Shown here: positions 583-58,618 of the stretch, one piece after another
Layout of the letters: each line of letters begins with the position of its first letter
Numbering within the stretch: position 1 is the stretch's first letter
From: Methanobacteriota archaeon
GTDB taxonomy: Archaea > Thermoplasmatota > Poseidoniia > Poseidoniales > Thalassarchaeaceae
NCBI GenBank assembly: GCA_002708695.1
Contig: PAOZ01000019.1
Location: forward strand, 3,065 to 67,064
DNA: 64,000 nucleotides
Reading direction: 5' to 3'
The notes under the pieces: generated by a model
What the model was told of the DNA's origin: nothing
Database searches by the model: none
The model's input: the letters and a program-made list of their open reading frames with translations, nothing else
Made by a program: the position numbers and the translations under genes

Positions 583-3500
583 TTAATCGAAGAAATCGTC
601 TAAATCATCGCCTTGACCATCAGAGGAACGATCCCCTACTTTCTCAAGTAAGAACTTCAAACGCCGTCGGATTTTTCGATTTCGATTTATTACCATTGGA
701 ACAGCAATAAGATTGATTGCAATAATGACAATAGCAACTAAAGAAGACGTTTGGAAATTCTGATCAGAGATGTCTTCAAGGAAACTATTCATCCAATCGT
801 TCTCATGATTTCGTTCAGGAGTAACTACATCGGGAATCAAATGAGGATTAGTTTCCCAAAACTGATCAGTAATCAATATTGATGCAGTGTTATCATTACG
901 AACTATAAAATCAGAATTACCGACTGAATCTTCAGGAATTAAGATGTAATAATATGTCTGCCCGATAGAAAGGCCGTCTTCTCCTGATGCCTGAACTTCG
1001 GTATACGATTCAGAAGTCAATGGCTCCCCCCATAATCCAGTCAAAATAGGTTCAATAAATTGAACTGATTGGGGTAAATTCTGTGTACGATACAAGGACC
1101 AAGTAACATTTTCTTCGTCAGGCAATCCATCACCGTCTTCATCAGGAATCTCGGGATAAATCCAAGTTACAGTGACAGAATGGGAATCTTTCTCATTTCC
1201 TGGAGATATATCATAATCATAAGAAAGAGTTACTCGAACATCTTGCATCTCATAATCAGGCGGATGAGCATCGCCACACTGAAGATCAGGATTGCCTACA
1301 TCTTTGAATCCTGTAACATTACCATGAGTATAATCAACAAGTCCTTGATGGTCAATAGCTGCAAGGATGTAACTTGCACAAATCCCCTCTTCTAGAGGAA
1401 CTGGATCTTTCCATTCAGTTTGATTTCCAGGTAAATCAACTACAAAGTTCTGTGTAACAGTTGATTCAAAATCATCGAGATTTTCGTACGGCCATCTAAA
1501 TGGGAACTCGGCCCTCTTGTAAACTCTCCATCCTCCAAAATAAGGGTCATCAATTGGCCCTTCAGAATCCCACATTAGAGTTAATTCTCCTCCTGCAGAT
1601 TTCTCTGTTCGTAGATTTAATGGAGTGACATTTACAGGAGCCATGTCTCCAACCAACATAATTGAACCACTAGATACGTCATTAAGACGAAGATGGAACG
1701 AATTATTAGACTCAAAGGCTTCAAACAAATCGTCTGAATCTAGAGGAGCCAAAACACCATTTGAACCATTGATAACATGCATTGCAACTACAGATGCAGG
1801 ACTAACACTGCTAGGAATTAGTTGACTAATATTGCCCCAAAAATCAATGTAATCAACATTCAAATCTTCGCCCGCAGTTGGATACAATCTAAAATCAAAT
1901 GAACGCAAAGGTGTCTTTCCGATGTTTACAGCTTGAGCATGTACTACTGTTTCGGGAAATGAAACATCAAGAACTTCGAATTCCATCTGTTCTACGGAAA
2001 CTGCCTCTCCAGAGGTAACTATAGGCATCTCTTGGAATTGGATTCTATTCAATACCTTGACGTACCTAGAAGATACTTCATCAAAGTCAGTTGGACTCAT
2101 CAAACTATGGCGAACGTGAAGAGTAATCTGATGATAACCCATTGGAAGAGTTGTACTAATCACTCTTCCATATCCTATTGTTTCAATGTAATCGATTTTC
2201 CAAGTATAATTCACAGGCAATGGAGAATCAGGTGCAAGGCCTGCTACAAACATGATTGATTCCCCAGTCTCAAATGTTGCATCGTCTAATGGAGGTACTG
2301 CAACATAAGCTCCTGTTGATGTTTGATTAATTACAATCTGAGTTTCGAAATAGTTGTTCGCAGGATCAAGATCAATTGATCCAGTCGAAGAAGTGGTAGT
2401 GGCATTTACTACAAATAAACCCAAATGATTCAAGGGGAAAATACAGGACACTAATTCCCCAGGATCAATTGTTTTAGTACATGAATCAGGATATCCTTCT
2501 ACCAAAGAATAGCCACTAGAAATATTGAATAATTCGATATTTAATGTAGTATTCCAAGGCATTTCTCCATCATTTCGAAGTTGAACTTGAAGGGCATCTT
2601 CGCCATAAGGGAATTTAACATAATTCTCAAAACCGATAGGAACCACTACTTCATCGCCCCTAGCAGGAGATATTCCTACTACTACAATATCTACATCATC
2701 GCTGACTTCAACTCTTACAGTTTCACCAATATTATTCCACGGATTAGGGTCTTCTGACGATTGCACATAGAATTCAACGTCATAAATCCCCTCGGAAGGG
2801 AATTGGAGATCAGGAGGAGACAGTACAAGAGAAGTCGAAGAACCAGAGACTGAAACTACAGAAGAAGATTCTGAAATTAGAAGGTGTGGAAGAACTAATT
2901 CAGCGCGAACACAGTGGAGGCCCTCTTCCATCCCAACAAAATCCATTTGGATTGAGACATCACTACCGTTAGATTTCCAATCATAAGAACCAGAATGGGA
3001 CTGATTTACTATTGATCCTGAGACAATAGACCACCTCAAAGAATAAGTTTCTTCATTTGATAGAGAAGTTGCATTGAATGTAGCATTAATTACATCATTT
3101 AGGGCATATGCCTCAACAAGAAGATATGGAGGAACCGTATCTGCTGGGGGAACAGGATTTTCAAAAAAACCAGCACCTACATACATACAGAATTGAGAAC
3201 TACCCATTGGAACATCCACTTGGTTCATCGACCAACCAACTGTAACTTCATCTTCTGCTGGCCAACCTATCGTGGTAACGGATACCGAAGTAGGGTAGTC
3301 TATACCAGGATTGAGGACATTGTTGGGGTCTAAATCATTTGAATTATAGATAATATCTTGAAAGAATTCATCCATATAGAATTTAACTGCTAAGCGGTCA
3401 TCAACAGGACGAATATCTTCTGATGAAAATCTAAACACAACTGTATAGGTCTGATTGGTGTATTCTATAGCATAAAAAGCATCAACAAAGGAAATTGTTG

Positions 3501-3855
3501 CTATTTCTTGAGGATCTAATGTTGGCACGGTAGTTTGACGTGAAAACAAAACGGATGGGCATGTAGCTGTAGATACATGGTCGCCTAAACAGATTTCAGC
3601 AACGATTGTGCGCCCTCCAATTGGAGTACTTGCATTACTTTGCACCTTTACTTCTAAGAAAATTGGGTCCCAAACACTGTAATGTGCTTCACTAATAGGG
3701 TCAATTACATCTGTAATCATGAAATCCTGAATGTTCCTTGAACTAGTTGCCTCAGTAGCAGGCAATAGTGGTAATGAAGACATCAAAAATAAGGCCAAAA
3801 CAAGGGGTACAGAGCGAATTATTCTAGAAGATGAACCAGCCGCTGGTCCCGCCAT
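583..3855 (-). CDS. large secreted surface protein (1090 aa). Sec-type signal peptide, very many N-X-S/T sequons, C-terminal TM anchor with basic/acidic cytoplasmic tail. Putative surface glycoprotein/adhesin.
   Basis: N-terminus MAGPAAGSSSRIIRSVPLVLALFLMSSLPLLPATEA is signal-peptide-like. C-terminus LVAIVIIAINLIAVPMVI followed by NRNRKIRRRLK...DDLDDFFD. Dozens of NxS/T motifs. Stop codon abuts the tRNA-Ser 3' end. Confidence 0.6.
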   Translation of the reverse strand: MAGPAAGSSSRIIRSVPLVLALFLMSSLPLLPATEATSSRNIQDFMITDVIDPISEAHYSVWDPIFLEVKVQSNASTPIGGRTIVAEICLGDHVSTATCPSVLFSRQTTVPTLDPQEIATISFVDAFYAIEYTNQTYTVVFRFSSEDIRPVDDRLAVKFYMDEFFQDIIYNSNDLDPNNVLNPGIDYPTSVSVTTIGWPAEDEVTVGWSMNQVDVPMGSSQFCMYVGAGFFENPVPPADTVPPYLLVEAYALNDVINATFNATSLSNEETYSLRWSIVSGSIVNQSHSGSYDWKSNGSDVSIQMDFVGMEEGLHCVRAELVLPHLLISESSSVVSVSGSSTSLVLSPPDLQFPSEGIYDVEFYVQSSEDPNPWNNIGETVRVEVSDDVDIVVVGISPARGDEVVVPIGFENYVKFPYGEDALQVQLRNDGEMPWNTTLNIELFNISSGYSLVEGYPDSCTKTIDPGELVSCIFPLNHLGLFVVNATTTSSTGSIDLDPANNYFETQIVINQTSTGAYVAVPPLDDATFETGESIMFVAGLAPDSPLPVNYTWKIDYIETIGYGRVISTTLPMGYHQITLHVRHSLMSPTDFDEVSSRYVKVLNRIQFQEMPIVTSGEAVSVEQMEFEVLDVSFPETVVHAQAVNIGKTPLRSFDFRLYPTAGEDLNVDYIDFWGNISQLIPSSVSPASVVAMHVINGSNGVLAPLDSDDLFEAFESNNSFHLRLNDVSSGSIMLVGDMAPVNVTPLNLRTEKSAGGELTLMWDSEGPIDDPYFGGWRVYKRAEFPFRWPYENLDDFESTVTQNFVVDLPGNQTEWKDPVPLEEGICASYILAAIDHQGLVDYTHGNVTGFKDVGNPDLQCGDAHPPDYEMQDVRVTLSYDYDISPGNEKDSHSVTVTWIYPEIPDEDGDGLPDEENVTWSLYRTQNLPQSVQFIEPILTGLWGEPLTSESYTEVQASGEDGLSIGQTYYYILIPEDSVGNSDFIVRNDNTASILITDQFWETNPHLIPDVVTPERNHENDWMNSFLEDISDQNFQTSSLVAIVIIAINLIAVPMVINRNRKIRRRLKFLLEKVGDRSSDGQGDDLDDFFD

Positions 3856-3991: not shown

Positions 3992-5029
3992 ATGCGGAGA
4001 GACTTTCAGTCAGATGAGGGGGGCCTCACCGCAGTGATTGAATTCCTTTCAGCATTCGTTCTTTTCCTAGTTATTGTCTCTGCTTTCCTCAGTCTTAGCC
4101 GTCTTAGTTTAGGTCCAAATGACCCTATGATAGATCGTTTAGATGAACACGCATCCGACGGTATAATGCGATTAACTTCAAGCCAAGGCTGGATGACACC
4201 ATATATTGATGAAAAAAGAGATGAAAATAATGGCACAGAAAATTGGCACTACGCAAATGCTAGCCAATTATTACATTCTGATGTCTTACCTGGAATAGGA
4301 AATTCAAATGGACAATTAGACCCAGAACGAATTTCTGCATTAAGTAATATTACAGAAGAACAACTGAAAAATGGTTTGGGTTTCCCGAATTTTGCTTCAA
4401 TAAACTTGTCAATAACTATACTTAACAGTCCGAATTTAGAACGTAATGGAATGACTTTATTTCTAGATGGAACTCCTCGAAAAGCAGCACAAAATTCTGC
4501 AGCAGCATTTCGCATCTTACCCATGGGGAATGAAACAATAGAAGTCAAATTAGAAGTTCATGATGCTGGGATGGTACCGGCCACAATGAAAATTACTGAA
4601 TTTGTCCCGAATCCAGAGATTGGAAAACCGGAATGGGTAGAGATACAAAACGACGGCGGGTTCGCTGTAGATTTGAACGGGTGGGGGATTTCCCGAAATG
4701 GTTTCCTTACCTTAGTTGGACAAGAAGCATTGAGAGGAGGAGGAATATTGATCTTATCTGGAGACATTGAAGAAATGGATACAGGAAACGCTAGCGTGGG
4801 CATTGATCTCGGACACACTGGAGTACTGGGAAGAGGAATGATGGACGGGCTGCACAATAATGCAGACAATCTCAAATTAACATACAATGAACCGGGTTTT
4901 TCTTTCACTCAAGAAGTAAATGTTGTCTCGTATGATTCTGATTGGGGGTTCCAAACAGGGTATAGTGCAAAATTGGATGAAAACGGATCTTGGCAAGTTT
5001 CTCAAATTACTACACCTGGCAACGTCTAA
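3992..5029 (+). CDS. pilin-like protein with class III (prepilin-type) signal peptide and C-terminal lamin-tail domain (LTD)
   Basis: N-terminus MRRDFQSDEGG|LTAVIEFLSAFVLFLVIV has basic n-region, Gly at -1 and E at +6, as in Flp/type IV prepilins. C-terminal segment EFVPNPEIGKPEWVEIQNDGGFAVDLNGWGIS matches the LTD consensus (EV..NP.....EWIEL.N.G...VDLSGW.L). Confidence 0.55.
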   Translation: MRRDFQSDEGGLTAVIEFLSAFVLFLVIVSAFLSLSRLSLGPNDPMIDRLDEHASDGIMRLTSSQGWMTPYIDEKRDENNGTENWHYANASQLLHSDVLPGIGNSNGQLDPERISALSNITEEQLKNGLGFPNFASINLSITILNSPNLERNGMTLFLDGTPRKAAQNSAAAFRILPMGNETIEVKLEVHDAGMVPATMKITEFVPNPEIGKPEWVEIQNDGGFAVDLNGWGISRNGFLTLVGQEALRGGGILILSGDIEEMDTGNASVGIDLGHTGVLGRGMMDGLHNNADNLKLTYNEPGFSFTQEVNVVSYDSDWGFQTGYSAKLDENGSWQVSQITTPGNV

Positions 5030-5066
5030 CCAACTTCTTGGCGTGGACTTATGAACAGAGTGTTGT

Positions 5067-5843
5067 GTGTTCGGTCCGGTCGCCATGCTGGGCAACGCAT
5101 CATATGAGCGTGATAGGTGCGTAACAGGTATACGGGGCCTCGATGAAATCCTGAGAGGAGGGATTCCTTACGGGTCCGCTACTCTTGTCGCCGGAACATG
5201 TGGTTCTGGAAAGACTACTTTGGGAATGGAGTTTCTAATGAATGGCGCACTTGCAGGAGAAGCGTGTGCTCATTTCTCAGCTACTGAGCCTTCAGTAAAA
5301 TTGCTTGAAAATATTAGACAATACAGTTTCTTCGATATGACTACCGTAGATCGAGGATTGATCAATGTGTTTGATATGGATGTTCTTTTCTCTTGGTTGG
5401 GTTTAGATAAAAGTACATTCAATCTAGATGATATTGATGCAATGGTCAAAGCGATTACCGATATTGTAAACACTATTGGAGTCACTAGACTTGTTATCGA
5501 TTCGGTAACTTCTCTTTGTTACAAAGTCCCAAATGAGCAACTTATCAGAGATTTTCTTTTCAAGTTAGGTAAATCACTCTCTACTTTAGGTTGCACTACA
5601 CTATTGATTGCTGAAATTACATCCGTAGGAGGTAGTTCCCACCGTTCAGCATTTGGTGTTGAAGAAGCAATTGCAGATGGAATCATTGTACTTGGAGACG
5701 TTGAACGAATGGGTCATCTTCTAAGATACTTACAAGTTGTCAAGATGCGTGGTACAGACCATAGTAGAGCAAAATATGCCTTGGAACTAACTCGAAGTGG
5801 AGTGATGCTAACTCCAATGCTAAAGTGGGGTGTTAGTCAATGA
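5067..5843 (+). CDS. KaiC/RecA-superfamily ATPase, single domain, intact Walker A (FlaH/ArlH-like or KaiC-like)
   Basis: GIRGLDEILRGGIPYGSATLVAGTCGSGKTTLGMEFLMNG is KaiC-type P-loop architecture. Walker-B-like TRLVIDSVTSL. GTG start at 5067 or ATG at 5085. Confidence 0.75.
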   Translation: MFGPVAMLGNASYERDRCVTGIRGLDEILRGGIPYGSATLVAGTCGSGKTTLGMEFLMNGALAGEACAHFSATEPSVKLLENIRQYSFFDMTTVDRGLINVFDMDVLFSWLGLDKSTFNLDDIDAMVKAITDIVNTIGVTRLVIDSVTSLCYKVPNEQLIRDFLFKLGKSLSTLGCTTLLIAEITSVGGSSHRSAFGVEEAIADGIIVLGDVERMGHLLRYLQVVKMRGTDHSRAKYALELTRSGVMLTPMLKWGVSQ

Positions 5844-6424
5844 TTGAATTTGATTTAGGAATTGCTGAACAATTAACTCAAGTTACCACCACCTCTAGTG
5901 TCCAAGTTAGAGTTGGAACCAGTAATTCTGATTTGGTAATTGCATCAATTATTCAACCATTAATGCAAAATTTTGGAATGGGAGGTGTATACATAACGGC
6001 CTCTCAAACTGCACCGAACGTTATCGAAATGATGAATACAATTGGAATTGATGTCTCTCCAATTCATTTCATTGATTGCGTTTCTTCTGGCATCCTAGGT
6101 GGAACTCAAAACCCATATCCAAATATTGGCTATATCGATAGCCCAATCATGCTTGAATCAATGATGTTACGTACATTACATCATCTAGAAAACTCTCAAG
6201 TTCAGCAAAACTTTGTCATCTTAGATTCTGTAAATGCACTTTCAATATATAATGAACAAAGAATTTTAGCAGAATATCTCCATACATTCATCAACACTTG
6301 CAAAAATAGACAAGTTCTCAGTCTAATTGTTAACGTTCCTGATCAAACACCAGCAGGAGTTCTTTCCAATCTTGACTTGTATTGTAGTGATCTCATTGAT
6401 AGAGGACAAGTAGTTATTTCTTGA
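5840..6424 (+). CDS. KaiC/RecA-like domain protein lacking a P-loop (pseudo-ATPase)
   Basis: ATGA overlap with the upstream gene (translational coupling). Retains Walker-B-like FVILDSVNAL and the KaiC-like C-terminal layout, but has no GxxxxGK[ST]. Confidence 0.5.
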   Translation: MIEFDLGIAEQLTQVTTTSSVQVRVGTSNSDLVIASIIQPLMQNFGMGGVYITASQTAPNVIEMMNTIGIDVSPIHFIDCVSSGILGGTQNPYPNIGYIDSPIMLESMMLRTLHHLENSQVQQNFVILDSVNALSIYNEQRILAEYLHTFINTCKNRQVLSLIVNVPDQTPAGVLSNLDLYCSDLIDRGQVVIS

Positions 6425-6433
6425 GGGATTTGA

Positions 6434-7249
6434 ATGACAATAAATTTTGATTCCGAAGATGAAGACTTCTATGGAGAAATGGGGTCAATCGGTTCAGTTA
6501 AATTCGATAGAATCCTTACAGGGACCCCACATAATACGGGAAGCATCCCAAGGGGCTTTACCCTTCTAGGATACGGAAATACTGGCGCTGGAATTGATTT
6601 GTTCGCAAAACAGTTCGTTTCAGTTGCTGAAGACCCAGAAAATACAATTTTGATTTCAACATCAGAAACAACATCAGAAATCCTATCGGTTTACAAAAAA
6701 TATGACTGGCCCACCGAGATACGTGTTCGAACTATGGGCGAGGAATACAATAAAGAAGTCCTAACTAGAGAACTTGAAGCTTCAAGATACAGAATCGAAG
6801 GATTTACTCTTAGCGACATACAAAAGTTGGCTCAAACACGTTTCGTTGATCAACAATCTCACGATTTTCTAACTGATTTAACAACTCAAGTCACATCTCT
6901 AGGACCTTACTTCCGAGCAGCCATAGATAGTTTGGATTTCTTTTACAGTAGATTTGATCCTGGAAGAGTCACATCTATGCTAAGAATTATGCAAGCACAT
7001 GCTCAAAGAAATAGAGGTCTTCTACTATTAACAGTAAGTGGTGATGCGGTAGAGAAGAGTACCGAACGTGAATCAATGGCAATTTGCGACATGGTAATGG
7101 AATTTGAAGTAGGGATGAGAGGTTCAGATTTCGATACTAGAATGGTAATTCGAAGATTTAGAAACCATCCAGAGAATCTAGCATTTATCACATTCAGAGT
7201 CACACCCGAAGAAGCCATAACTCCAGAGACGGTCGAAAGAGTAGCATAA
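6434..7249 (+). CDS. KaiC/RecA-like domain protein with degenerate P-loop (GYGNTGAGID, no Lys)
   Basis: GSIPRGFTLLGYGNTGAGIDLFAKQFVSVAE parallels the KaiC GGxPxGsxxLxxGxxGxGKT segment with Lys lost. GAGGG SD-like motif 6 nt upstream of the ATG. Confidence 0.5.
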   Translation: MTINFDSEDEDFYGEMGSIGSVKFDRILTGTPHNTGSIPRGFTLLGYGNTGAGIDLFAKQFVSVAEDPENTILISTSETTSEILSVYKKYDWPTEIRVRTMGEEYNKEVLTRELEASRYRIEGFTLSDIQKLAQTRFVDQQSHDFLTDLTTQVTSLGPYFRAAIDSLDFFYSRFDPGRVTSMLRIMQAHAQRNRGLLLLTVSGDAVEKSTERESMAICDMVMEFEVGMRGSDFDTRMVIRRFRNHPENLAFITFRVTPEEAITPETVERVA

Positions 7250-7280
7250 GTCGCCCAACCTTCAAGATAGTCAACCTCTA

Positions 7281-7784
7281 GTGCGTACCATGAAGGCCCC
7301 GAAGGAGTCTCAAGATGCAGTGAGCCCAGTTATTGCTACTGTTCTTCTTTTGGCAATTACCGTTCTTCTAACAAGTGGTATCTACATCATGGTTCAAGAT
7401 GCAGTTCAAGCCCCCGATAAAGGGACACCATATGGACAATTAACATCTCAATCCTTGGATAATGGATTCCAAGTAGTAAGAGTCTCTGATTTATCCAATG
7501 AATTGATGATAAATACAATCAAATTCCAAATTATATCCAATAATGGCACTATTATCGAAGGTCTAGCAAATGATGCATCCGTATACGGTGCTATCGGTTC
7601 AGATATTACCTTTCAAGACAGAGATGCTGGACTTACCCTAAATCGAGGCGACTATTTCATTATCAACGCAACAGCCATTGGTTCAGATGAAGGTGATTGG
7701 ACATTCAGATTAATCTTCATGGGAACCGGAACGCGAGGAACTGCGGATCTTGGCCAAGTAATTCTTCCAGCGATTAATCAATAA
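7281..7784 (+). CDS. archaeal type IV pilin (class III signal peptide, Pilin_N-type N-terminus)
   Basis: M(R)TMKAPKESQDA|VSPVIATVLLLAITVLLTSGIYIMV. The VSPVIATVLL(L/V)AITV segment is the hallmark archaeal pilin/archaellin N-terminal motif. Small Gly/Thr/Asn-rich mature domain. GTG at 7281 or ATG at 7290. Confidence 0.7.
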   Translation: MRTMKAPKESQDAVSPVIATVLLLAITVLLTSGIYIMVQDAVQAPDKGTPYGQLTSQSLDNGFQVVRVSDLSNELMINTIKFQIISNNGTIIEGLANDASVYGAIGSDITFQDRDAGLTLNRGDYFIINATAIGSDEGDWTFRLIFMGTGTRGTADLGQVILPAINQ

Positions 7785-10702: not shown

Positions 10703-12643
10703 TTATCCTAAACGTCCAAAGTGGTCGTCTAATTGAGATATATCCAATTTCAATACAGTAGGCCGTCCGTGCACACAAGCCCAAGGATTCTCGATGGTAG
10801 ACATATCTGCCAACAATCTTCTCATTTCAGCTAATTCAAGACGTTGGTTTGCCTTTACAGCACCTCTACAAGATTTCATGAATGCTATTTCATCTTGAAG
10901 TTGATCTACGCTATCTAGAATCATACTATCTGATTCATTAATGTCGGAAAGTAAATCTTTGATAAATCCAATCAACCTATCATCACCAAGTAATAATCGG
11001 GGTACTGAAATTATATCCTCGACAGATTCCTCTCCAAAATTGAATCCTAAATTATTCAATAATTCCCTATTATTTTCAATTATTCCCCTTTGTCTTGCCG
11101 ATAATTCGATTTTCAATGGATGAATCAATGACTGAGGTTCCCAAGAAGACATATCATGACGTAATCTTTCATATCTGATTCGCTCATGTAGAGCATGTTG
11201 ATCTACAACAAACAATGATTCTCCACCTTGGGCCAAAATGTAGGTATCAGCAAACTGAGAAAGTGCCTCCATAGCAGGAACATCTGTCACTGGGCCTCTA
11301 AATTCTGGTTCAGAAATAGGCGATACGGGGTCTCCAGTACTCGAGTAACGATGTAATTCTCTTTCTGCTACAGAGAGTGCGGGGGAAATTGGCATCGAAT
11401 CAAGTCCTGGCAATGTTTCCTGTACTGATGGTGAATGAGAAATAGGCCTAGCACGAGGAGATTCAGAAATGGTTCTTGGAGAAACAGGTTGATTGAATCT
11501 AGTTTGAACTGATGTAGCTGCTTCAATCCAAGCAGGATTCTTATTTTGGGTCGGTGGGGGGGTTGGAAGATTATTCAAATCACTCACAGACCCTAGCGGA
11601 AAGGAATCTGTAGCAGGAGCACCAGTAGGAATAGAAAGTAAAGTATGAGCAATACTACGCTCAAGACGTTCTAAAACTCTCCAAGAATTCTTTAATCGAA
11701 CTTCCCGTTTTGTGGGATGGACATTGACGTCAACTTCATCATTTGGCATATCTAAGAATAAAACACAAACCGGATGTCGACCAACCATTAATCGAGTTTG
11801 GTATCCCTTTCGAATAGATTGTAAAAATGGCGTAGAAGCTACTGTTCGATTATTTACAAAAATATGGATGTCATCAGAACGGCCTCGATCAACTGATGGA
11901 GGAGAAATCCAACCTCGCCATCGTTCTTCACCTGGTGCAGATTCATCTGATTCAGGACCAACAAGCGGAATTAAGCGCTCAGAAGAACCTCCAAGAACAT
12001 CATAAAGACGAGATTCAGGAGTAGTTGGACCTGGTGAAGAAAGCACAATTCTATCATCTACCTTGATTGAAAAACCAACTTCTGGATGAGCAAGAGCATA
12101 AGCCATGACTACATCGACTATAGCTGCAGTTTCAGTAGAAGGACGCCTTTGAAAAGCCATTCTCGCAGGAACAGAGGAAAAAATATCCTTTACTTCTATC
12201 CTAGTTCCAATTGATTTACCTACAGGACCAATTGGAAAGACCTCTCCGTGATTTACTTCTATGAATGAACCCTCTTGTGTTTCTAACTTCGATTCTATTC
12301 TCAAGTGACTTACTGAGCCAATAGCTGCCAAGGCTTCACCTCTGAAACCAAGGGTCCCAATATTCGAAAGATCTTCCGATGTTCTCAATTTACTAGTAGC
12401 ATGACGGTTTACTGCTAAAATTAATTCAGATGCAGGAATACCGTGACCATCATCCTCCACTGAAAGACGAGAAAATCCACCATCTTCAACTACAATACCA
12501 ATGTTTGTTGAACCCGCATCTAAACTATTCTCAACTAATTCCTTGACAACCTGAGCGGGACGTTCGACTACTTCACCTGCTGCAATTCTTCCGATTGTTG
12601 CATCATCCAATTGTTCTATTGGAGACCGAGTCAAAATCATCAC
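10703..12643 (-). CDS. mutL: DNA mismatch repair protein MutL
   Basis: N-terminal GHKL ATPase motifs IAAGEVVERPAQVVKELVENSLDAG. C-terminal dimerisation domain. 646 aa. Confidence 0.93.
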   Translation of the reverse strand: MMILTRSPIEQLDDATIGRIAAGEVVERPAQVVKELVENSLDAGSTNIGIVVEDGGFSRLSVEDDGHGIPASELILAVNRHATSKLRTSEDLSNIGTLGFRGEALAAIGSVSHLRIESKLETQEGSFIEVNHGEVFPIGPVGKSIGTRIEVKDIFSSVPARMAFQRRPSTETAAIVDVVMAYALAHPEVGFSIKVDDRIVLSSPGPTTPESRLYDVLGGSSERLIPLVGPESDESAPGEERWRGWISPPSVDRGRSDDIHIFVNNRTVASTPFLQSIRKGYQTRLMVGRHPVCVLFLDMPNDEVDVNVHPTKREVRLKNSWRVLERLERSIAHTLLSIPTGAPATDSFPLGSVSDLNNLPTPPPTQNKNPAWIEAATSVQTRFNQPVSPRTISESPRARPISHSPSVQETLPGLDSMPISPALSVAERELHRYSSTGDPVSPISEPEFRGPVTDVPAMEALSQFADTYILAQGGESLFVVDQHALHERIRYERLRHDMSSWEPQSLIHPLKIELSARQRGIIENNRELLNNLGFNFGEESVEDIISVPRLLLGDDRLIGFIKDLLSDINESDSMILDSVDQLQDEIAFMKSCRGAVKANQRLELAEMRRLLADMSTIENPWACVHGRPTVLKLDISQLDDHFGRLG

Positions 12644-15321
12644 TCCTCAACCCAATCTGGCATTTTCTCTTTCCCTTGTTCTTCGGCTTTCAAAGCATAT
12701 AATGCATCAAGTGCTTCACGGGGAGTCATCATGTCTGGATCTAACGCAGAAAGACGTTCCAACAAATCTCTTTGTCTATCTGATAAGAGGGGGGCGGAAG
12801 GAATAGAGGGTTGAATTTCAGAATTAATTTCAGAATTTACCATCCATCCAAAAAGAGAAGATTGTCCATTAGGTCTGGAAAGAGGAATTCCCTTTCCTCC
12901 GGCTCTAGCCCCTTCCGCTTGTTGTTCTAAGAAAATCAACAAGTCTCTGGCTCTTTCGATTACTGAAGTGGGTAAACCCGCTAGAGAAGCAACTTGGACA
13001 CCATAAGAATCATCACATGGACCCTCAGAAACAGTATGTAAGAAAGTCAATTCACGATTAATTTCCGCTACTTGTACATGGATATTGAATAAACTTTCAA
13101 TTTCTCCTTCTAAACCTACTAATTGATGATAATGGGTTGCAAATAATGACCTTGCGCCAATCCTTTTAGCCAAATCTTCTGTTACGGACCAAGCAATTGC
13201 AAGTCCATCAAATGTAGAGGTACCCCTACCCACTTCATCAAGCAATACTAGACTTCTAGAAGTGGCTCGGCGAAGAATATGAGCGACTTCAATCATTTCC
13301 ACCATAAACGTAGATCTCCCTCTACGAAGGTCGTCGTGTGCTCCAACTCTAGTGAAAACGCGATCAATTAAACCAATTCTAGCCTTTGAAGCAGGAACAA
13401 AAGAACCTGCTTGGGCAAGAATAGATATCAATGCAGTTTGACGTAAATAAGTAGACTTTCCCCCCATATTTGGTCCAGTTAATAATAGAAATTTTCTATT
13501 CTTAGCAAACTGAATATCATTTGGAACAAAACCCTCTATTTCTTCTAAAACTGGATGTCTGCCGGCAATGATATCTAATCTATCATCTTCAAAAATTTCT
13601 GGTCTAACCCAAGACCTTCGACGAGATTGTTCGGCCAGTGAACAGAGAACATCTATGGCAGCAACATTTCTTGCAATTTGAGATAAAACAGAACTTTGGA
13701 CTTTCACTCGCTCCCTCAATTCCAAAAATAACCGATATTCCAAATCGTTAGCTCTTCCACCTGCATTCAGAATTATGTCTTCCCATTCTGCTAATTCATC
13801 GGTAGTGTATCTCTCCGCATTAGTCAATGTTTGACGACGGCGATATTCCTTTGGAACCTTATCGGTATGAACTTTAGTGACTTCAACAAAATAACCAAAT
13901 TGTCGATTAAATTTAACTTTGAGAGAAGGGATATTCAACCGTTCTCTCTCTCTTTCTTCAAATCCTTTTAGCCAATCTTTACCTTCACCCGAACGATTAC
14001 GAAGTTCATCCAATGATTCGTTAATTCCTATTCTGAAAATTCCTCCATCTCGAATTGTATGAGGCGGTTCTTCAACCAATTCATGTTCAATTATTGTTCT
14101 TATCGATTCCAACTTTGTCAGGCCATTTCCTAAAGAAATCAATAATCCATCAGAGGATTCATTCACTAATCCCTGCAATCTAGGCATCCGGCTAAGAGCA
14201 TCAGAAATCGCAATCAAATCTCTAGCATTCGCTCTATCATAAGCTAAACGAGTAGAAAGACGTTCGAGGTCTCTCATTGACTGGAGACATGATCTGATTT
14301 CGGCTAGTCGTTTAGATGCACGAACCAAAGAAGAAATCGCTGAATGGCGCTCAGCAATTCTATTCTTATCCATTAAAGGCCTAAGCAACCATTCCTTCAA
14401 CATTCTTCGCCCCATCCATGTCCTAGTCTGATCAATGGCATGAAGAAGTGAACCAACTCTTTCTCCAAGCAAAGTTTGTGTCAATTCTAAATTTTTCAGG
14501 GTAGTTTGATCAAGAGACATATAATCAGAATCATCCTCAACTGAAATCTCTCTAAGAGGAACAGAATCTATCAAATGAAGAGAAGAAATGTAAGACGCTC
14601 CAAGACCACATGCTTCCATCCCATGTGGTCGAGAATCAAGGTCTATCGATCCTAAATCTGCAATATCAAGATGATGACGAACAACTTCCATCCTACGTTT
14701 TGGTGAGCATTCATGAGTAGAAAGTGAAAGGCCGTCAACATCGATAATCACTGAACGCATGGATTCATTGATTGCGTCCTTGCTAGTCGTAACCAATTCT
14801 GCAGGAGACCATCGAAGCATCTCGTCCCTTAGTCTGTCAAAACGAGATGGGCCAGTAAATTGCTGAGCCCATGCTCTTCCAGTAGAAGTATCTAGTAATG
14901 CCAGACCCAATGAATCTGATTTTAGGACAACGGATGCAAGCAAAGCCGAACCATCTTCGCCAATTAACGAATCTTCGTACAATGAACCAGGAGTATATAC
15001 TCTAGAAACTACTCTCCTGAGAATCTTCTCTCCCGGAAGGGGGTCTGATGCTTGCTCACAAACAGTAACCTTGTGACCTGCTTGAACCATTTTTCGCAAG
15101 TAATCTTCGACACTATGCCATGGAACGCCAGCCATAGGTACTGGATTTTCAGCATTCTTATCTCTACTTGTTAATGTAATTCCTAAAACTTCAGCACCTA
15201 AAACTGCATCTTCGTAAAACATCTCATAGAAATCCCCCATTCTGAAGAAAAGCACAGTATCCGGATGTTCTTGCTTAATCGCCCTATATTGATCAAGCAT
15301 CCCGGGTCCCTTGCTGGCCAT
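12640..15321 (-). CDS. mutS: DNA mismatch repair protein MutS (MutS1 type)
   Basis: N-terminal mismatch-binding motif GDFYEMF. ABC ATPase GPNMGGKSTYLRQ...STFMVEM. 4-nt overlap with mutL. The ORF track extends to 15387; MASKGPGMLDQYRAIK at 15321 is the more likely start. Confidence 0.93.
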   Translation of the reverse strand: MASKGPGMLDQYRAIKQEHPDTVLFFRMGDFYEMFYEDAVLGAEVLGITLTSRDKNAENPVPMAGVPWHSVEDYLRKMVQAGHKVTVCEQASDPLPGEKILRRVVSRVYTPGSLYEDSLIGEDGSALLASVVLKSDSLGLALLDTSTGRAWAQQFTGPSRFDRLRDEMLRWSPAELVTTSKDAINESMRSVIIDVDGLSLSTHECSPKRRMEVVRHHLDIADLGSIDLDSRPHGMEACGLGASYISSLHLIDSVPLREISVEDDSDYMSLDQTTLKNLELTQTLLGERVGSLLHAIDQTRTWMGRRMLKEWLLRPLMDKNRIAERHSAISSLVRASKRLAEIRSCLQSMRDLERLSTRLAYDRANARDLIAISDALSRMPRLQGLVNESSDGLLISLGNGLTKLESIRTIIEHELVEEPPHTIRDGGIFRIGINESLDELRNRSGEGKDWLKGFEERERERLNIPSLKVKFNRQFGYFVEVTKVHTDKVPKEYRRRQTLTNAERYTTDELAEWEDIILNAGGRANDLEYRLFLELRERVKVQSSVLSQIARNVAAIDVLCSLAEQSRRRSWVRPEIFEDDRLDIIAGRHPVLEEIEGFVPNDIQFAKNRKFLLLTGPNMGGKSTYLRQTALISILAQAGSFVPASKARIGLIDRVFTRVGAHDDLRRGRSTFMVEMIEVAHILRRATSRSLVLLDEVGRGTSTFDGLAIAWSVTEDLAKRIGARSLFATHYHQLVGLEGEIESLFNIHVQVAEINRELTFLHTVSEGPCDDSYGVQVASLAGLPTSVIERARDLLIFLEQQAEGARAGGKGIPLSRPNGQSSLFGWMVNSEINSEIQPSIPSAPLLSDRQRDLLERLSALDPDMMTPREALDALYALKAEEQGKEKMPDWVEE

Positions 15322-15425
15322 TCTTGCACCTCCAATTATCGCGTGACCGTCTGCGCACCTCAGCGAGGTATGATGAACATAACGCAAAGAAAATTACAGA
15401 TTTCAGATTAAACAAAGAGGTTGGA

Positions 15426-25645: not shown

Positions 25646-25936
25646 TCATGGTAAAGTGAAAAGATGATCATCTCCATGTCCATCAAGCCAACCAATTCGA
25701 ACTCCTGCATCTATCCAAGCGTGAGCATAGTATATCGCTCCGAATGCTCGGACATGGTCTCCATTTTCTAAGAAATGTAGAGCATCTTTACAATAATCAT
25801 CACACATATTCAACATATCCTGTAAACGAATACCCTCAGAAGATGCAAGATCAACAATAGGGGTGGCTTTCTCTCTAGCAGCATTTGTTAGAGCAAGTGC
25901 CTCCAAAACCTTCTCTCTTGAAACTTCTATATTCAT
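25646..25936 (-). CDS. small conserved hypothetical protein (96 aa)
   Basis: 1-nt overlap with the upstream beta-propeller gene. No assignable motif. Confidence 0.35.
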   Translation of the reverse strand: MNIEVSREKVLEALALTNAAREKATPIVDLASSEGIRLQDMLNMCDDYCKDALHFLENGDHVRAFGAIYYAHAWIDAGVRIGWLDGHGDDHLFTLP

Positions 25937-26967
25937 TATTCTGAACCCTCCTGCAGTCCCAATACTCTTCTAACATCCTCTTCTCTACCTAATGCACGAT
26001 AAAGTTCCAAAGCCCTAGACCAAAGTCCTTCTTCTTCTGCTTCCTGAGCAGATTCAAACATCGAAGTTCTCTGCATCCAATCCAAACGTCTTCGCTCTTC
26101 AGTCTGTAATGATCTAAGATTTTCCATCCTCGCTCCACTAAGTGATGGAGATTCACTCCATCGGATTAATCCTTCACGAGTTGCTGAAACGATAACACCT
26201 GAACCATCTGAATGAATAATATCTACGCAATCTTCTCCAAATCCAGCATCTGTATCTTCTATCGAATGATATATTCGGCCTTCAAGGTCCATAATCCACC
26301 AACCATCTCCTGCTCTAATAGCACGGTGAGGATCTATTCCACCATCAGAAATACGGGATATCTCATCCCATCCAAACGGATTTGGTACCCCCTCAAATAA
26401 TGCTCCTGATGAATCCAACATTAGCATCCTTCCATTTGATAATCTGCTGCACCATGTCCAACGACGATTTTCTATGATTCTTTGAGCATGCTCACCATGC
26501 AATCGAACACATCGGAGTTGGCCATCGTGATCTAAACAAAGAAGATGTTCTCTATCCATCCATCCAACAATCATACGAGTGAGGCCAACGCGAAGACGAC
26601 GAACTCCTCTTCCATTTTCTCTAAAGAGGTGTAAGTGGTCTCCTCTATCTGGGGCAATCCATCCACCTCCTGTACGATATATTGCCTCTCGATAACCACC
26701 TGGAATAGAGCGACCATCACTAAGTGGGGCCCCTGTGCTACGATTCAAGACATGAATCGAAGTGCCGGTCAATAGAGCAACACTTGATCCGGATGATTCT
26801 ACTGAATAAGTATCGAAAATATAGTCGCTTCTCCAAGCAGTAGTCCCATCGGAACGTAAAGCAACCAAAGATTGTCCTGTACAAATCAACATCCCATTTG
26901 AATCAACCTTTACATCATTCACTGGTCCTTCTATCTGATGACTCCATGCAACTCGCCATTCACTCAT
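25936..26967 (-). CDS. beta-propeller (PQQ/WD-like repeat) protein with C-terminal helical/TPR-like tail
   Basis: Repeated strand/turn segments with D-G turns. C-terminus EEEGLWSRALELYRALGREEDVRRVLGL. ATGA overlap with the upstream NTPase gene. Confidence 0.4.
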   Translation of the reverse strand: MSEWRVAWSHQIEGPVNDVKVDSNGMLICTGQSLVALRSDGTTAWRSDYIFDTYSVESSGSSVALLTGTSIHVLNRSTGAPLSDGRSIPGGYREAIYRTGGGWIAPDRGDHLHLFRENGRGVRRLRVGLTRMIVGWMDREHLLCLDHDGQLRCVRLHGEHAQRIIENRRWTWCSRLSNGRMLMLDSSGALFEGVPNPFGWDEISRISDGGIDPHRAIRAGDGWWIMDLEGRIYHSIEDTDAGFGEDCVDIIHSDGSGVIVSATREGLIRWSESPSLSGARMENLRSLQTEERRRLDWMQRTSMFESAQEAEEEGLWSRALELYRALGREEDVRRVLGLQEGSE

Positions 26968-29015
26968 TCATCCACCTCCGTTAATAGCCGCGATGCAGCG
27001 GCTGTCATTCTATACCATCGAGTCCTACCTTCTTTGCGAACAGAGAGGAATCCATGTTTTCTTAAATCATTAAAAATCTGAGATAATCGTGAACGTCCAA
27101 CCTGTAATCTTGCTTGTAAAGCATCATCACTTGGAGATATATCCCTAGTTGTAGCTGCCGTTAAAACAACTACATCGGCATCTGAAACCTCTCTTAGACG
27201 ATCGGGGCGAAGAGGTGCATCTGGATCCCAACGGGGAGAACGCAATGAATTAAGTCCCCGAAGAATGTCTTCGGGCGAAGCCCTAGGAACTGATTCGGAT
27301 GAAGGGATAACAGAAGATTTCTGATTCTGAGAAGGAGGTTCGGAACCGGCTTCAACCCAAAGATCGGCTCCCTCAGAGGTTAAATCAGGAGGCCGAGAAG
27401 CCATAGGATTGGGTACTAAATTATTGGAAATCGGAGAAGAGATGTTGCTATCATCAATTGGTTCGACAAAGGCAGGAGGTTTATCTGTAGAAGAATAAGG
27501 ATCAATTATTTCAGGAGTCGGTAATGGATCAATTCCCATAATTTCGGACGTAGGGGGGTTAGGAGGGAGGTTTGCATCAATACGTGCAGTCATTTCTTTA
27601 CTCCTCGCAGATAATCCGTATATTCCTCCCCTTTTTGGAGGAGGAGGGGGTTTTACCACAATATCATTGACTGGCGATACGGAATTTGAAATTGGTAGTT
27701 CATCTTCAATAAATTCGATTAAATCCTCGGAATCAGGTAAAGATGTTATATCTGTTTCAGGATATGATGAAGACACTTCCATATCTGCTTCTCTAGATGC
27801 CTTTTCCCAAGCAGCAAAAGGCTCCAATTGCTCAGGCTCATCTTCTGTCTCAAGATATAGAGGATCTCCTTCGAAATCGTCGAATCCTCCACGTGAAGCG
27901 AAATGGACTGCTTCATCGTCCCATCCAACTTCACTATCCATACTATCGGAATCATCTAACATTAGAGAATCCACAATAGGCTCAAATTTTGAATTTGAAG
28001 CAGGCGCTGGTTCAACAATAGATTCTGTTTGAATTGTAGTTCCTTGAAGCCAAGCATCATATTCGTCCTCTACTTTATCTGTAGAAGAAGGAGAAGTTGG
28101 AGAAAATAATGGACGTGAGATTTCAGGAGCAGGGATGTGTTGAGGCGTAGCAGAAAATTCATCACGATTTGGCAATTCTGATTCATGTACTTCAGGATAA
28201 GTCGATACGTCTACTGAAAGAAATTCAGGAGGAAGTTGCCCCTCAGGATCTCGAAGATAAAGGAGATGTCGATGTAGTTGACGATTTATTGTTGATGGAT
28301 TACCTCGAGAATATGAATGAAGTTTGGTTAATTCAGTCGAATCTGTAACTATTGTCTCATTTGAGACGGTTCCCATGCGTTTATCGATAAATTGGCGGAT
28401 GTCACTCTGATTTAATGGCTCCAAATAATGAATCATGTCAAACGAGTCATGTAGAGAACGATCCCACGTGGTCATCTGGTCACTTCTTACAGCAAACACT
28501 ACCATTGCCCGCATTCTTCTTAATACAGGTATAAGTTCCTCAACTAACGACATCAATTCTTGTGATTTCGGTGATTTATAATCAAGTGCAACCAATGGAA
28601 GAGGGCCTTGAATCGAATTTAGGTGACTTGTTAACTCATTGGCTACAGCTTGAGGAGTAGGAGGAGTTTTGAAACCCCCCATCAAACCTACCAAAGCCTC
28701 ATCCAAGAATCTAGAAATGGGGTCTGATGGTGCCCAAATTGACCCTATGTGTCTCGAATCTAGAGGGGAAAGGCATTGTAATAGACTAGTTCTACCAGAA
28801 CCAGATTCTCCAACAATCAAATGGATTCCTGGTTGTCTATTCATTATATCGCTGGCAAGACAGGTGACGATTTTTTCTCTGCCAACTAGGAGATTCTTGT
28901 GTTCATGCTCAAGCGGAGACTGAGTGAAAGGGTTTCCTCGCACTAGAGGGCCACTCGGTAAGTGCTCCGCGCCTGACATCAACGGCCCATCACAATCCAA
29001 ATATAAACAATTCAC
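26964..29015 (-). CDS. Orc1/Cdc6-like or archaeal-ATPase-like P-loop protein with Walker A Lys replaced by Arg, about 350-aa acidic/Pro-rich disordered linker, and C-terminal winged HTH
   Basis: NPF..SPLEHEHKNLLVGREKIV resembles the Orc1 N-terminal box. P-loop GESGSGRTSLL has R in place of K. Linker contains PPPPKRGG and many D/E/S/P. C-terminus LSQIFNDLRKHGFLSVRKEGRTRWYRMT is wHTH-like. Confidence 0.5.
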   Translation of the reverse strand: MNCLYLDCDGPLMSGAEHLPSGPLVRGNPFTQSPLEHEHKNLLVGREKIVTCLASDIMNRQPGIHLIVGESGSGRTSLLQCLSPLDSRHIGSIWAPSDPISRFLDEALVGLMGGFKTPPTPQAVANELTSHLNSIQGPLPLVALDYKSPKSQELMSLVEELIPVLRRMRAMVVFAVRSDQMTTWDRSLHDSFDMIHYLEPLNQSDIRQFIDKRMGTVSNETIVTDSTELTKLHSYSRGNPSTINRQLHRHLLYLRDPEGQLPPEFLSVDVSTYPEVHESELPNRDEFSATPQHIPAPEISRPLFSPTSPSSTDKVEDEYDAWLQGTTIQTESIVEPAPASNSKFEPIVDSLMLDDSDSMDSEVGWDDEAVHFASRGGFDDFEGDPLYLETEDEPEQLEPFAAWEKASREADMEVSSSYPETDITSLPDSEDLIEFIEDELPISNSVSPVNDIVVKPPPPPKRGGIYGLSARSKEMTARIDANLPPNPPTSEIMGIDPLPTPEIIDPYSSTDKPPAFVEPIDDSNISSPISNNLVPNPMASRPPDLTSEGADLWVEAGSEPPSQNQKSSVIPSSESVPRASPEDILRGLNSLRSPRWDPDAPLRPDRLREVSDADVVVLTAATTRDISPSDDALQARLQVGRSRLSQIFNDLRKHGFLSVRKEGRTRWYRMTAAASRLLTEVDE

Positions 29016-30549: not shown

Positions 30550-31166
30550 CCTTCTATGTCTTCTTCGGTCCCATCAGAGTCAGGAATTACGTCCATATCA
30601 CCTACTTGAGGATCCAACTCACGGATAGAATCAACCAATGCCTGAGAAGAAATTCCATTTTCTTGAGCCTGTTGCCTAAACCATTCTTTGACTTTCTTTG
30701 GCTCAGTATGTGGGCATTGGAAACGTTCGGCAAAATATCGAGTAGTTTGCAAACGTCGTGAATTCCCTTTTCTACGCCTATCAACTAAACCTAATCGCGC
30801 TAAAGAACGTACGTAATCATATGCAATCGGACCCATCATGCTAACTAAATCACTCTGCATCATAGGTTGATGATAAGCAATCAAGGCAGCAGCGCGTTGT
30901 AATCTCTCAGGTATATCTCCCCTTAATTCAGAAGGCAAATAGGGAGAAAGACGAGGGTCTACTTCCATAGACCATCTGCCACCAACTTCCACTATCTGAA
31001 GAGCATTTCCTCTTCTACGCCTATATTGACCTCTTAGAGAATCAAGAGCTTGGGTTACTTCTTCTTCACTAATGGATGATTGAGATGCTAATTCTGAGCA
31101 ACTTAAAGACCTACCTGAGCAAAATAGTAAGGCTTCTACAATTGCATCAACTCCTGGTTCACTCAT
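30540..31166 (-). CDS. scpB: segregation and condensation protein B
   Basis: N-terminus IVEALLFCSGRSLSCSELA is the ScpB winged-helix signature. 4-nt overlap with scpA. Confidence 0.8.
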   Translation of the reverse strand: MSEPGVDAIVEALLFCSGRSLSCSELASQSSISEEEVTQALDSLRGQYRRRRGNALQIVEVGGRWSMEVDPRLSPYLPSELRGDIPERLQRAAALIAYHQPMMQSDLVSMMGPIAYDYVRSLARLGLVDRRRKGNSRRLQTTRYFAERFQCPHTEPKKVKEWFRQQAQENGISSQALVDSIRELDPQVGDMDVIPDSDGTEEDIEGQD

Positions 31167-32173
31167 ACTTCCACCTCCACTAACGAAATTCCACGTTCTT
31201 CAGCAATCTTGTTTAGAGCATCCTCATATGAATTGGAAGATGGCCACCTATCTTTGATGAAAATCCTGCCCTCTGATGCCTTTCCCATTTGCCAAATTTC
31301 AGCGAACCCCCTGTGGGTAAGGAAAAGAGATGCAACAAAACCGGAAATTTCACCTTCAATACTTGCTTCATTATCAGTAGCTCCTTCTTCGATGGCTAAT
31401 GCCATCAAATGCTCTCTAATTGACTGTAATTCAACTGGTGCACCATTCCTACCTAAATCTCTCATTGCAGACCAGCAACGTCGAATATCGTCCTCAAGAT
31501 TCTCCCTATGTATCCTTGAAGAAACATTAGCCATTGCCTCTGCAACTTCAGCTTGATGACGAACTCTTGCTTGTTCACGAAGTTGCCTTTCTCTAGCATC
31601 CTCATGGGCACCTTTCAATGAAAATAGCATTTCAGTGAGAGTAATGGGCCTTGATTCGGTAGTTCTACGAATGCGACCTTCGAAGAGATTTGGCAAAGCA
31701 TCTTTTGCTTGCCCAGTGAGCACATTTACCGAAAAAGAATATTCATCATCACTCAGTTCACTTTCCCAACCTATATCCATAGTCCAATCATCTTCAAGTA
31801 ATTCTTCTTCCCAACGTTCATGACGTTCAATGAGAGTAAATGTTTGAGCATGTAAAATTGACCATGCCATTCTAATCAGTCTTCCACAACTAGGCAAATC
31901 GATATTTTCTGCAGTCTTTATCCTCTCACTGAATAAATCAATAAAAGTAGAAAGATCGACGTCCCATGGATCAAGAGATTCTGTTTGGAAAAGTTGGAAA
32001 ACAAGTGCAATTGACCTATCAATTGGATCAACCAACATCTGGTGCTCTCCATTTTCCATTTCTGCGATTTCCACTAATCGGTCAATGAACGGAGAAACTG
32101 ATTCTTCTTCTTCTTCTCCGAGCAAGCGATTTACAATATCAGAACGAAGGTGGTGTGAATCTAAAATATTCAT
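31163..32173 (-). CDS. scpA: segregation and condensation protein A (kleisin)
   Basis: FEGPLDLL-like N-terminal segment (QLFQTESLDPWDVDLSTFIDLF). Position between smc and scpB. Confidence 0.8.
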   Translation of the reverse strand: MNILDSHHLRSDIVNRLLGEEEEESVSPFIDRLVEIAEMENGEHQMLVDPIDRSIALVFQLFQTESLDPWDVDLSTFIDLFSERIKTAENIDLPSCGRLIRMAWSILHAQTFTLIERHERWEEELLEDDWTMDIGWESELSDDEYSFSVNVLTGQAKDALPNLFEGRIRRTTESRPITLTEMLFSLKGAHEDARERQLREQARVRHQAEVAEAMANVSSRIHRENLEDDIRRCWSAMRDLGRNGAPVELQSIREHLMALAIEEGATDNEASIEGEISGFVASLFLTHRGFAEIWQMGKASEGRIFIKDRWPSSNSYEDALNKIAEERGISLVEVEV

Positions 32174-57862: not shown

Positions 57863-57871
57863 TTTTATCCC

Positions 57872-58612: not shown

Positions 58613-58618
58613 ATCACC

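Follow-up and report, generated by a model that had tools for sequence, protein, structure and literature searches.

One KaiC-like ATPase and two degenerate paralogs encoded beside a type IV pilin gene in a Marine Group II archaeon

An association between KaiC-family ATPases and the type IV pilus loci of archaea has been described (PMC4858521), and the KaiC-like protein CirA is genetically tied to the control of PilA-dependent motility (PMC10983859). ArlH, a KaiC-like hexamer, controls the assembly ATPase ArlI according to its own nucleotide or phosphorylation state (bioRxiv 10.1101/2021.03.19.436134). Inactivated KaiC (iKaiC) domains are also on record: PMC5847659 lists DUF835 as such a domain and credits the concept to Makarova 2017. 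In eukaryotic Elongator, the Elp456 subcomplex is a hetero-hexameric ring built from three RecA-fold paralogs whose ATPase sites are degenerate (PMC3630180). The present study concerns a 64,000-nt segment of an archaeal chromosome from Marine Group II (MGII, Poseidoniales), the whole of which is referred to as the window, and in particular positions 5067-7249, where three consecutive genes code for the KaiC/RecA-fold proteins K1, K2 and K3.

The three genes belong to a run of five tightly packed genes on the + strand (3992-7784), in the order LTD345, K1, K2, K3 and pilin. The K1 stop and the K2 start overlap as ATGA, and 9 nt separate the K2 stop from the K3 start. An earlier note on this DNA had placed two catalytically dead KaiC-like paralogs at 5840-7249, downstream of an intact one, and this interval coincides exactly with the two open reading frames (ORFs) of K2 (5840-6424) and K3 (6434-7249). 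Within the trio only K1 carries the Walker A motif GxxxxGK[ST]. At about even confidence, we consider that K1, K2 and K3 form one obligate KaiC-like assembly, in which one subunit type alone is competent for nucleotide, and that this assembly is linked to a type IV pilus.

The three KaiC-like paralogs

K1 (5067-5843, + strand, 258 residues) is a single-domain KaiC-like ATPase, which matches the Pfam KaiC model (PF06745, cut-off 26.6 bits) with 178 bits and an expectation value (E) of 1.8e-52; among PDB sequences its best match is KaiC (1.4e-42). Its true start may be the ATG at 5085. The Walker A sequence GTCGSGKT is invariant in 68 of 68 distinct orthologs, as are the Walker B residue D145 and the finger residues K226 and R228, the K226-x-R228 pattern being aligned with K224/R226 of KaiC. 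Equally invariant in these orthologs is Thr73-Glu74, which occupies the position of the KaiC Glu-Glu catalytic pair and retains only one of the two Glu residues. The description of an intact ATPase followed by two dead paralogs therefore holds for the losses in K2 and K3 and for Walker A, Walker B and the finger of K1, but the word "intact" needs a small qualification at Thr73-Glu74. Judged by these residues, K1 may hydrolyse ATP slowly or serve chiefly as an autokinase, as ArlH does. K1 falls below the cut-offs of all the narrower family models compared: the circadian KaiC models TIGR02655 and NF006799 (99 bits versus 546 and 138 bits versus 408, respectively), the RadB and RadA equivalogs (24.5 bits versus 278 and 21.5 bits versus 259) and the NCBIfam ArlH model NF052589 (34.6 bits versus 215).

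K2 (5840-6424, + strand, 194 residues) is a trimmed, inactivated KaiC fold, identified from its AlphaFold model, Foldseek and family alignments. Its match to Pfam KaiC (25.5 bits) is just under the cut-off, and its profile matched nothing relevant among PDB sequences. The model (predicted local distance difference test, pLDDT, 85; predicted template-modelling score, pTM, 0.86) displays the RecA-type strand-loop-helix topology, and Foldseek matched it to PH0284, KaiC (CI), FlaH and RecA with probability 1.0 and template-modelling (TM) scores of 0.6-0.69. All three proteins are thus members of the KaiC/RecA-like superfamily, K2 through its model fold. As the earlier note had observed for the protein of the window, GxxxxGK[ST] is absent from K2, in 18 of 18 aligned orthologs. 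The P-loop position, which lies in the model between the strand at 20-24 and the helix at 30-44, is occupied by G26-T-S-N-S-D-L-V33 (family consensus GTSNSFLV), and the position of the catalytic Glu holds Gln or Arg in the alignment. Moreover, the protein ends upstream of the hairpin that bears the Lys/Arg finger, so that the finger hairpin is absent. The strand at 124-129 ends in a Walker-B-like D129-S130 (NFVILD129-S), and D129 is the only catalytic residue left. Across MGII the mean column identity of K2 is 75%, with 78 of its 194 columns invariant.

An exhaustive search with the K2 profile yielded 1040 clusters at E <= 1e-3, of which 254 reached E <= 1e-10, and the best 148 of the 1040 likewise show no GxxxxGK[ST] (148/148 representatives). 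Many members of this wider family are stand-alone proteins of about 190 residues, one of which is named Methanomassiliicoccales; in others the domain forms the C-terminal part of a fusion with DUF835 or with long TPR/SNAP and Ig-like arrays. Many also match Pfam DUF7504 and DUF7090; the K2 of the window matches neither, and its ortholog in the distant locus L095, with 21 and 20 bits, stays below the cut-off of 27. Because its relatives match DUF7504/DUF7090 or are fused to DUF835, which are listed as iKaiC domains, K2 is a member of a large recognised class of KaiC-derived pseudo-ATPases. The K2-like proteins named so far range over Thermoplasmatota, Methanomassiliicoccales and, as fusions, Altiarchaeota. 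Examples of K2-like proteins beyond the stand-alone type are P0421 (Altiarchaeota MFH0861731.1, 1358 residues), P0406 and P0427, as well as P0410, P0434 and P0439. Some of these proteins are very large and end in the K2-like domain after SNAP/TPR repeats and CARDB/BatD Ig-like arrays; in others the domain is joined to DUF835. Still other K2-like proteins measure about 380-400 residues, and their N-terminal half of some 220-245 residues has no Pfam match.

K3 (6434-7249, + strand, 271 residues) is a full-length pseudo-ATPase of the KaiC/ArlH fold according to Pfam, its family profile and its AlphaFold model. Its match to Pfam KaiC (31.2 bits) is above the cut-off. Residues 48-55 read GNTGAGID, in agreement with the earlier note, which had pointed to the missing Lys and to a possible error of alignment register. 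The family profile aligns with KaiC chains at E = 1.2e-23, and T-G-[SA]-G-x-[DE]-L-F-A-K-Q-F falls on P/S-G-T-G-K-T-L-F; since the GNTGAGID stretch is aligned in this way with the GTGKT of KaiC, there is no shift of register, and K3 really does lack the Lys/Thr pair. In 37 sequences spanning Thermoplasmatota, the Walker A Lys position is taken by V, M, A, I, L, S or T, never by Lys, and the Thr position is always acidic (Glu in 26, Asp in 11). The same set shows G51, G53, L56, K59, F61, T76, E78, R161, D165, N244 and P246 to be invariant. E78 represents the one catalytic Glu retained, and D165 lies in the Walker B segment RAAID165-S; the Walker-B-like hhhhDS segments attributed to both dead paralogs are therefore indeed kept in both. 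The finger is kept as well, K241 in 36 and R243 in 35 of the 37 sequences, aligned with the Lys/Arg finger of KaiC. The degenerate P-loop is itself highly conserved (G-[AS]-G-x-[DE]-L-F-A-K-Q-F, residues 51-61), with an invariant Lys four residues past the acidic residue, and by this pattern the pocket looks to have been remodelled under selection and not simply lost.

The AlphaFold model of K3 (pLDDT 86) includes an extra helical insert at about residues 101-155. Its best Foldseek match is FlaH/ArlH (4yds; E = 4e-13, TM 0.80 on the target), followed by KaiC. This similarity between the predicted model and 4yds is real but is no proof of ArlH membership, the K3 score against NF052589 being 36 bits for a cut-off of 215. 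KaiC-type phosphosites (equivalents of S431/T432) were also considered in K3 and dropped, as the positions hold Ser-Ser in MGIIa and Met-Ala in the window and are not conserved.

Conservation of the operon and its surroundings

Homologs were examined in their genomic neighbourhoods, which carry labels of the form L0nn; four of these loci (L014, L095, L096 and L097) are distant, non-MGII loci of Thermoplasmatota. K1, K2 and K3 occur in this order in all of the approximately 80 MGII loci with enough flanking sequence. The trio also occurs in the four distant loci, with only 27-55% identity to the window; L014 comes from groundwater, and the genome of L095 measures 1.99 Mb. Relatives of K3 with 33-38% identity are present in many other Thermoplasmatota, among them Thermoplasmata and Proteinoplasmatales SG8-5 by their database names. 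A scan of genome contigs with the single K3 sequence returned mostly near-identical MGIIb genomes and one distant locus. In L097, a second and longer KaiC-family protein (493 residues, 1-1266, - strand, cut by the end of the locus) is encoded about 5 kb upstream of the trio.

The selective constraint on the trio was assessed from the ratio of nonsynonymous to synonymous substitution rates (dN/dS) relative to four close loci, the distant loci being unusable because dS is saturated. The ratios are 0.009-0.020 for K1, 0.007-0.021 for K2 and 0.020-0.024 for K3, compared to 0.04-0.09 for LTD345 and 0.10-0.11 for the adjacent aroA. Between MGIIa and MGIIb, identities are about 78% for K1, 65% for K2, 57% for K3, 40% for LTD345 and 26% for the large divergent protein described below. 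The trio is thus among the most constrained gene sets of its neighbourhood. Since their dN/dS is below that of aroA and they are conserved with their degenerate P-loops included, K2 and K3 are not pseudogenes; they are functional and not decaying.

The gene that follows K3 in the window (7290-7784, + strand; 7281 in the ORF list; 164-167 residues) matches Pilin_N (3.7e-6, 28.1 bits, cut-off 25.2) and TIGR02537 (8.3e-8, 31.6 bits, cut-off 20). With its class III signal peptide and hydrophobic N-terminal helix, as read from the sequence, the product is assigned as a PilA-type archaeal type IV pilin. Its N-terminus is QDA/VSPVIATVLLLAITV, and the stretch AVSPVIATVLLLAITV is near-identical to the pilins of the distant loci; AVSPVIATxLxxAITV is common to the pilins of the window, L014 and L095-L097. 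The ATG at 7290 (MKAPKESQDA/VSPV...) is a likelier start than the listed GTG at 7281, because the orthologs start there. In each of the four distant loci, two or three Pilin_N genes directly follow K3. Within MGII, a pilin gene follows K3 in the clade of the window and in L048, and in L041, L046 and L056 a pilin gene is located divergently upstream of K1.

Upstream of K1, and adjoining it in nearly all MGII loci, lies the gene for the pilin-like protein LTD345 (3992-5029, + strand, 345 residues). It combines a class III (prepilin-type) signal and a TadE-like hydrophobic N-terminus with an Ig-like Lamin Tail Domain, the match to the latter (5.4e-6) being below the Pfam cut-off. The N-terminal pattern [DE][GA]/[LVM][TV]AV[IV]EFLSAF is conserved in about 60 orthologs, and LTD345 is probably a minor pilin or pseudopilin. 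Divergent from the operon is the ORF of a secreted protein of 1090 residues (583-3855, - strand), which has no Pfam match. It features an N-terminal signal peptide, a C-terminal membrane anchor with an acidic cytoplasmic tail past it, and many N-x-S/T sequons, and it looks like a surface-layer (S-layer) protein or adhesin. S-layer-like proteins accompany PilA-based pilus systems (PMC4858521). Homologs of this large protein and of LTD345 are found in nearly all MGII loci. The large protein is fast-evolving (23-30% identity at MGIIa distance, compared to 78% for K1), yet its position and orientation beside the operon are kept.

The core of a type IV pilus machine is encoded at 56624-59191 (- strand), about 50 kb from the pilin gene and the trio. 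It comprises a T2SSE-family ATPase (56624-57862, - strand, 412 residues; PF00437, 1.2e-40) and, after it, two TadC/T2SSF membrane proteins of half size (246 and 190 residues), i.e., a split platform. Other genes of the window code for L10e, a diphthamide synthesis protein, Cdc6/Orc1, an A-type ATPase operon, SMC and MutS/MutL. The proteins of the window have close relatives in MAGs of Candidatus Thalassarchaeaceae and Poseidoniales. In addition, an ORF of 683 residues (26964-29015, - strand) resembles a STAND-type NTPase weakly and only in its N-terminal part (nSTAND1, 2.9e-7), and the ORFs that adjoin it (25936-26967 and 31163-32173) have no Pfam match.

Possible assembly and alternative explanations

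The physical association of K1, K2 and K3, together with the composition of a ring, its stoichiometry and the pilus as its target, is what we infer from the data. One assembly is suggested by the ATGA coupling, the strict co-occurrence, the equal and extreme constraint and the finger retained in K3. In KaiC and RecA rings, nucleotide is bound at the subunit interfaces, and a Lys/Arg finger reaches into the site of the neighbour. K1, K2 and K3 would be co-translated and would join one assembly, in which only K1 would be able to bind and turn over ATP or to autophosphorylate. Since the finger acts in trans and the nucleotide sits at interfaces, K3, positioned beside K1, could complete or sense the site of K1 through its Lys/Arg finger while having no site of its own. 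The acidic residue in its dead P-loop could serve as a stand-in for phosphate and fix the interface of K3 itself. K2, devoid of pocket and finger, may act as a minimal scaffold, spacer or docking subunit. Such an assembly would work together with the PilA-type pilus. Like ArlH, it could be a switch that depends on nucleotide and acts on the assembly ATPase and platform, whose genes lie in trans, or else it might set pilin production as a KaiC-type signalling hub. The type IV pilus is the most probable target because of the recurrent pilin linkage, the similarity of K3 to ArlH and the precedents of ArlH and CirA.

A more specific form of this proposal is a single 2:2:2 hetero-hexamer, similar to Elp456 or F1, with only two competent ATP sites, each made of a K1 P-loop and a K3 finger. 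By docking with the PilB-type ATPase and the split TadC platform, this asymmetric ring would serve as the on/off or assembly switch of the PilA-type pilus in Thermoplasmatota; we regard this form as unlikely. If true, ArlH would have a counterpart with three subunits, and rings in the style of Elp456 would have a prokaryotic precedent.

Several observations weigh against a single pilus-linked assembly. In most MGII loci, no pilin gene is found closer than 7 kb to the trio, which makes the link to pilins an ancestral or recurrent trait and not a universal one; the ATPase of the pilus, at a distance of 50 kb, shows no co-conservation in the loci retrieved. Of the two catalytic glutamates of KaiC, K1 is missing the first, and its own turnover may accordingly be slow. 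No fusion of a K2-like and a KaiC domain was seen among the sampled representatives. In addition, hhalign of K2 with K3 gave only 5% probability over 24 columns, with shallow profiles (number of effective sequences, Neff, 1.7); the relatedness of K2 and K3 was judged by fold comparison, since these profiles are too shallow for hhalign.

Among the alternatives, it is conceivable, if rather doubtful, that the trio functions as separate oligomers: K1 as a hexamer, and K3 and/or K2 as homo-oligomers stacked in the manner of the CI/CII tiers of KaiC, or as KaiB-like adaptors or outputs that read the nucleotide or phosphorylation state of K1. KaiC is itself a two-tier stack of related domains, and both tiers match K1 and K3. 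The invariant [DE]55 of K3 is found together with the conserved K241/R243, and this acidic P-loop residue could pair with the Arg finger of a neighbouring K3 to give a nucleotide-independent ring. Adaptor roles are further suggested by the fusions of iKaiC domains to sensor or output domains (DUF835, REC, TPR; PMC5847659). A stacked-ring or adaptor arrangement fits the operon coupling and the equal constraint as well as does the hetero-oligomeric ring suggested in the earlier note. A recombination mediator of the RadA/Rad51-paralog type, for which the pilin neighbours would be incidental, is quite improbable. Rad51-paralog complexes commonly include ATPase-dead subunits. The database names of the K3 relatives, "RAD55 family ATPase" or "recombinase RecA", point in this direction, the archaeal RadA paralog Sso2452 (2w0m) is matched by K1 (7.3e-20) and K3 (9.9e-19), and K1 has weak matches to XRCC3, RadA and RadB. 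However, the scores against the RadB and RadA models are far below their cut-offs, the KaiC matches are much stronger than the Rad-type ones, five independent lineages and arrangements have pilin genes immediately downstream of K3, and the MGII module also holds a prepilin-like protein and a large surface protein. The window (10703-12643) and the distant L014 (13686-15407) each have a mutL gene within about 5-7 kb downstream of the trio, perhaps through residual synteny or by chance; together with mutS in the window (10703-15387), it is the sole contextual hint of a DNA-repair function.

The loss of canonical catalytic residues might also suggest that K2 and K3 are decaying duplicates of K1 without a function of their own. 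This explanation can practically be dismissed: their dN/dS of 0.007-0.024 is below that of aroA, two-fifths of the K2 columns are invariant, and the conservation of both proteins across Thermoplasmatota, degenerate P-loops included, refutes decay.

Should the preferred single assembly prove correct, the trio would constitute a natural RecA/KaiC ring in which the work is split between one catalytic and two pseudo-enzyme subunits, and a concrete candidate regulator for archaeal adhesion pili. To our knowledge, no ArlH-like component is known for such pili. The motif pattern of K3 (dead P-loop, conserved acidic residue, Arg finger kept) provides a specific and testable structural hypothesis. Thermoplasmatota include the archaea that are most abundant in the plankton of the surface ocean; MGII are uncultured and very abundant, and their attachment to particles is an ecological question.

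Comparison with known systems

Like K3, ArlH/FlaH (Sulfolobus acidocaldarius, 4yds; Pyrococcus furiosus) is a single-domain KaiC fold and is encoded with type IV filament genes. The regulatory KaiC/FlaH logic that had been proposed for the locus fits this context, K3 being structurally closest to FlaH/ArlH and the trio being tied to type IV pilin genes. ArlH, however, is a single protein whose Walker A is functional and whose gene adjoins arlI and arlJ, whereas the present locus has three paralogs, two of them without the P-loop Lys. Furthermore, the trio adjoins pilin genes while the ATPase and platform are remote, and neither arlI nor arlJ is adjacent to it among the ORFs of the window or in the MGII neighbourhoods.

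The pilus genes of the window resemble those of another member of the same phylum. In the CdiP pilus of Cuniculiplasma divulgatum (Thermoplasmatales), the pilin genes lie far from the operon for the machinery, and the platform protein is divided into two genes (PMC12448462). The window likewise has a pilin remote from the machinery and a split platform, which corresponds to CdiPFa/CdiPFb in Cuniculiplasma. The two differ in that the paper names no KaiC-like genes in the CdiP system (PMC12448462).

Cyanobacterial KaiC gave the top sequence match with both K1 and the K3 profile, and the Walker B and K-x-R finger regions align. In contrast to the single domains of K1-K3, KaiC is a covalent double domain with the phosphosites S431/T432 and the partners KaiA and KaiB; no KaiB-like gene was called in the neighbourhoods examined (the window region, the MGII loci and the distant loci).

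Elp456 is the closest architectural analogue of the trio, and the analogy is architectural only: both consist of three RecA-fold paralogs, but Elp456 has a tRNA modification context and the trio has pilins. The orthologs of K1 and K3 have weak Pfam matches to PAXNEB/Elp4 and those of K2 to Iki1/Elp5, but all of these fall below the cut-off (E = 0.0058 to 0.067), and membership of Elp4/5/6 is not indicated. A link to Elp3 and Elongator was likewise considered and rejected: no Elp3 is encoded nearby, and the gene for a 560-residue radical-SAM protein before K1 in L096 and L097 matches only the generic Radical_SAM model. This gene is lineage-specific, without a homolog in L014, the MGII loci or the window.

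The iKaiC domains of archaea (DUF835, MEDS, DUF7504/DUF7090; Makarova 2017 as cited in PMC5847659) have, like K2 and K3, a KaiC fold with a disrupted Walker A. K2 and K3 are themselves iKaiC proteins, as they combine a KaiC-like fold with a disrupted nucleotide-binding loop and are conserved as families. The published iKaiC cases considered here are mostly fused to REC, PAS or membrane sensors, whereas K2 and K3 are two different stand-alone types that are fixed alongside an active KaiC and pilins in one operon. The novelty implied by the earlier note is therefore reduced in part, since both iKaiC (PMC5847659) and the association of KaiC with pili (PMC4858521) were already published. Our literature search found no description of a fixed operon of one active and two inactivated KaiC paralogs with PilA-type pilins, although a listing in Makarova 2017 is possible. 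Thus, the inactivated domains and the pilus association each have precedents, and it is their union in a fixed three-paralog operon that appears to be new.

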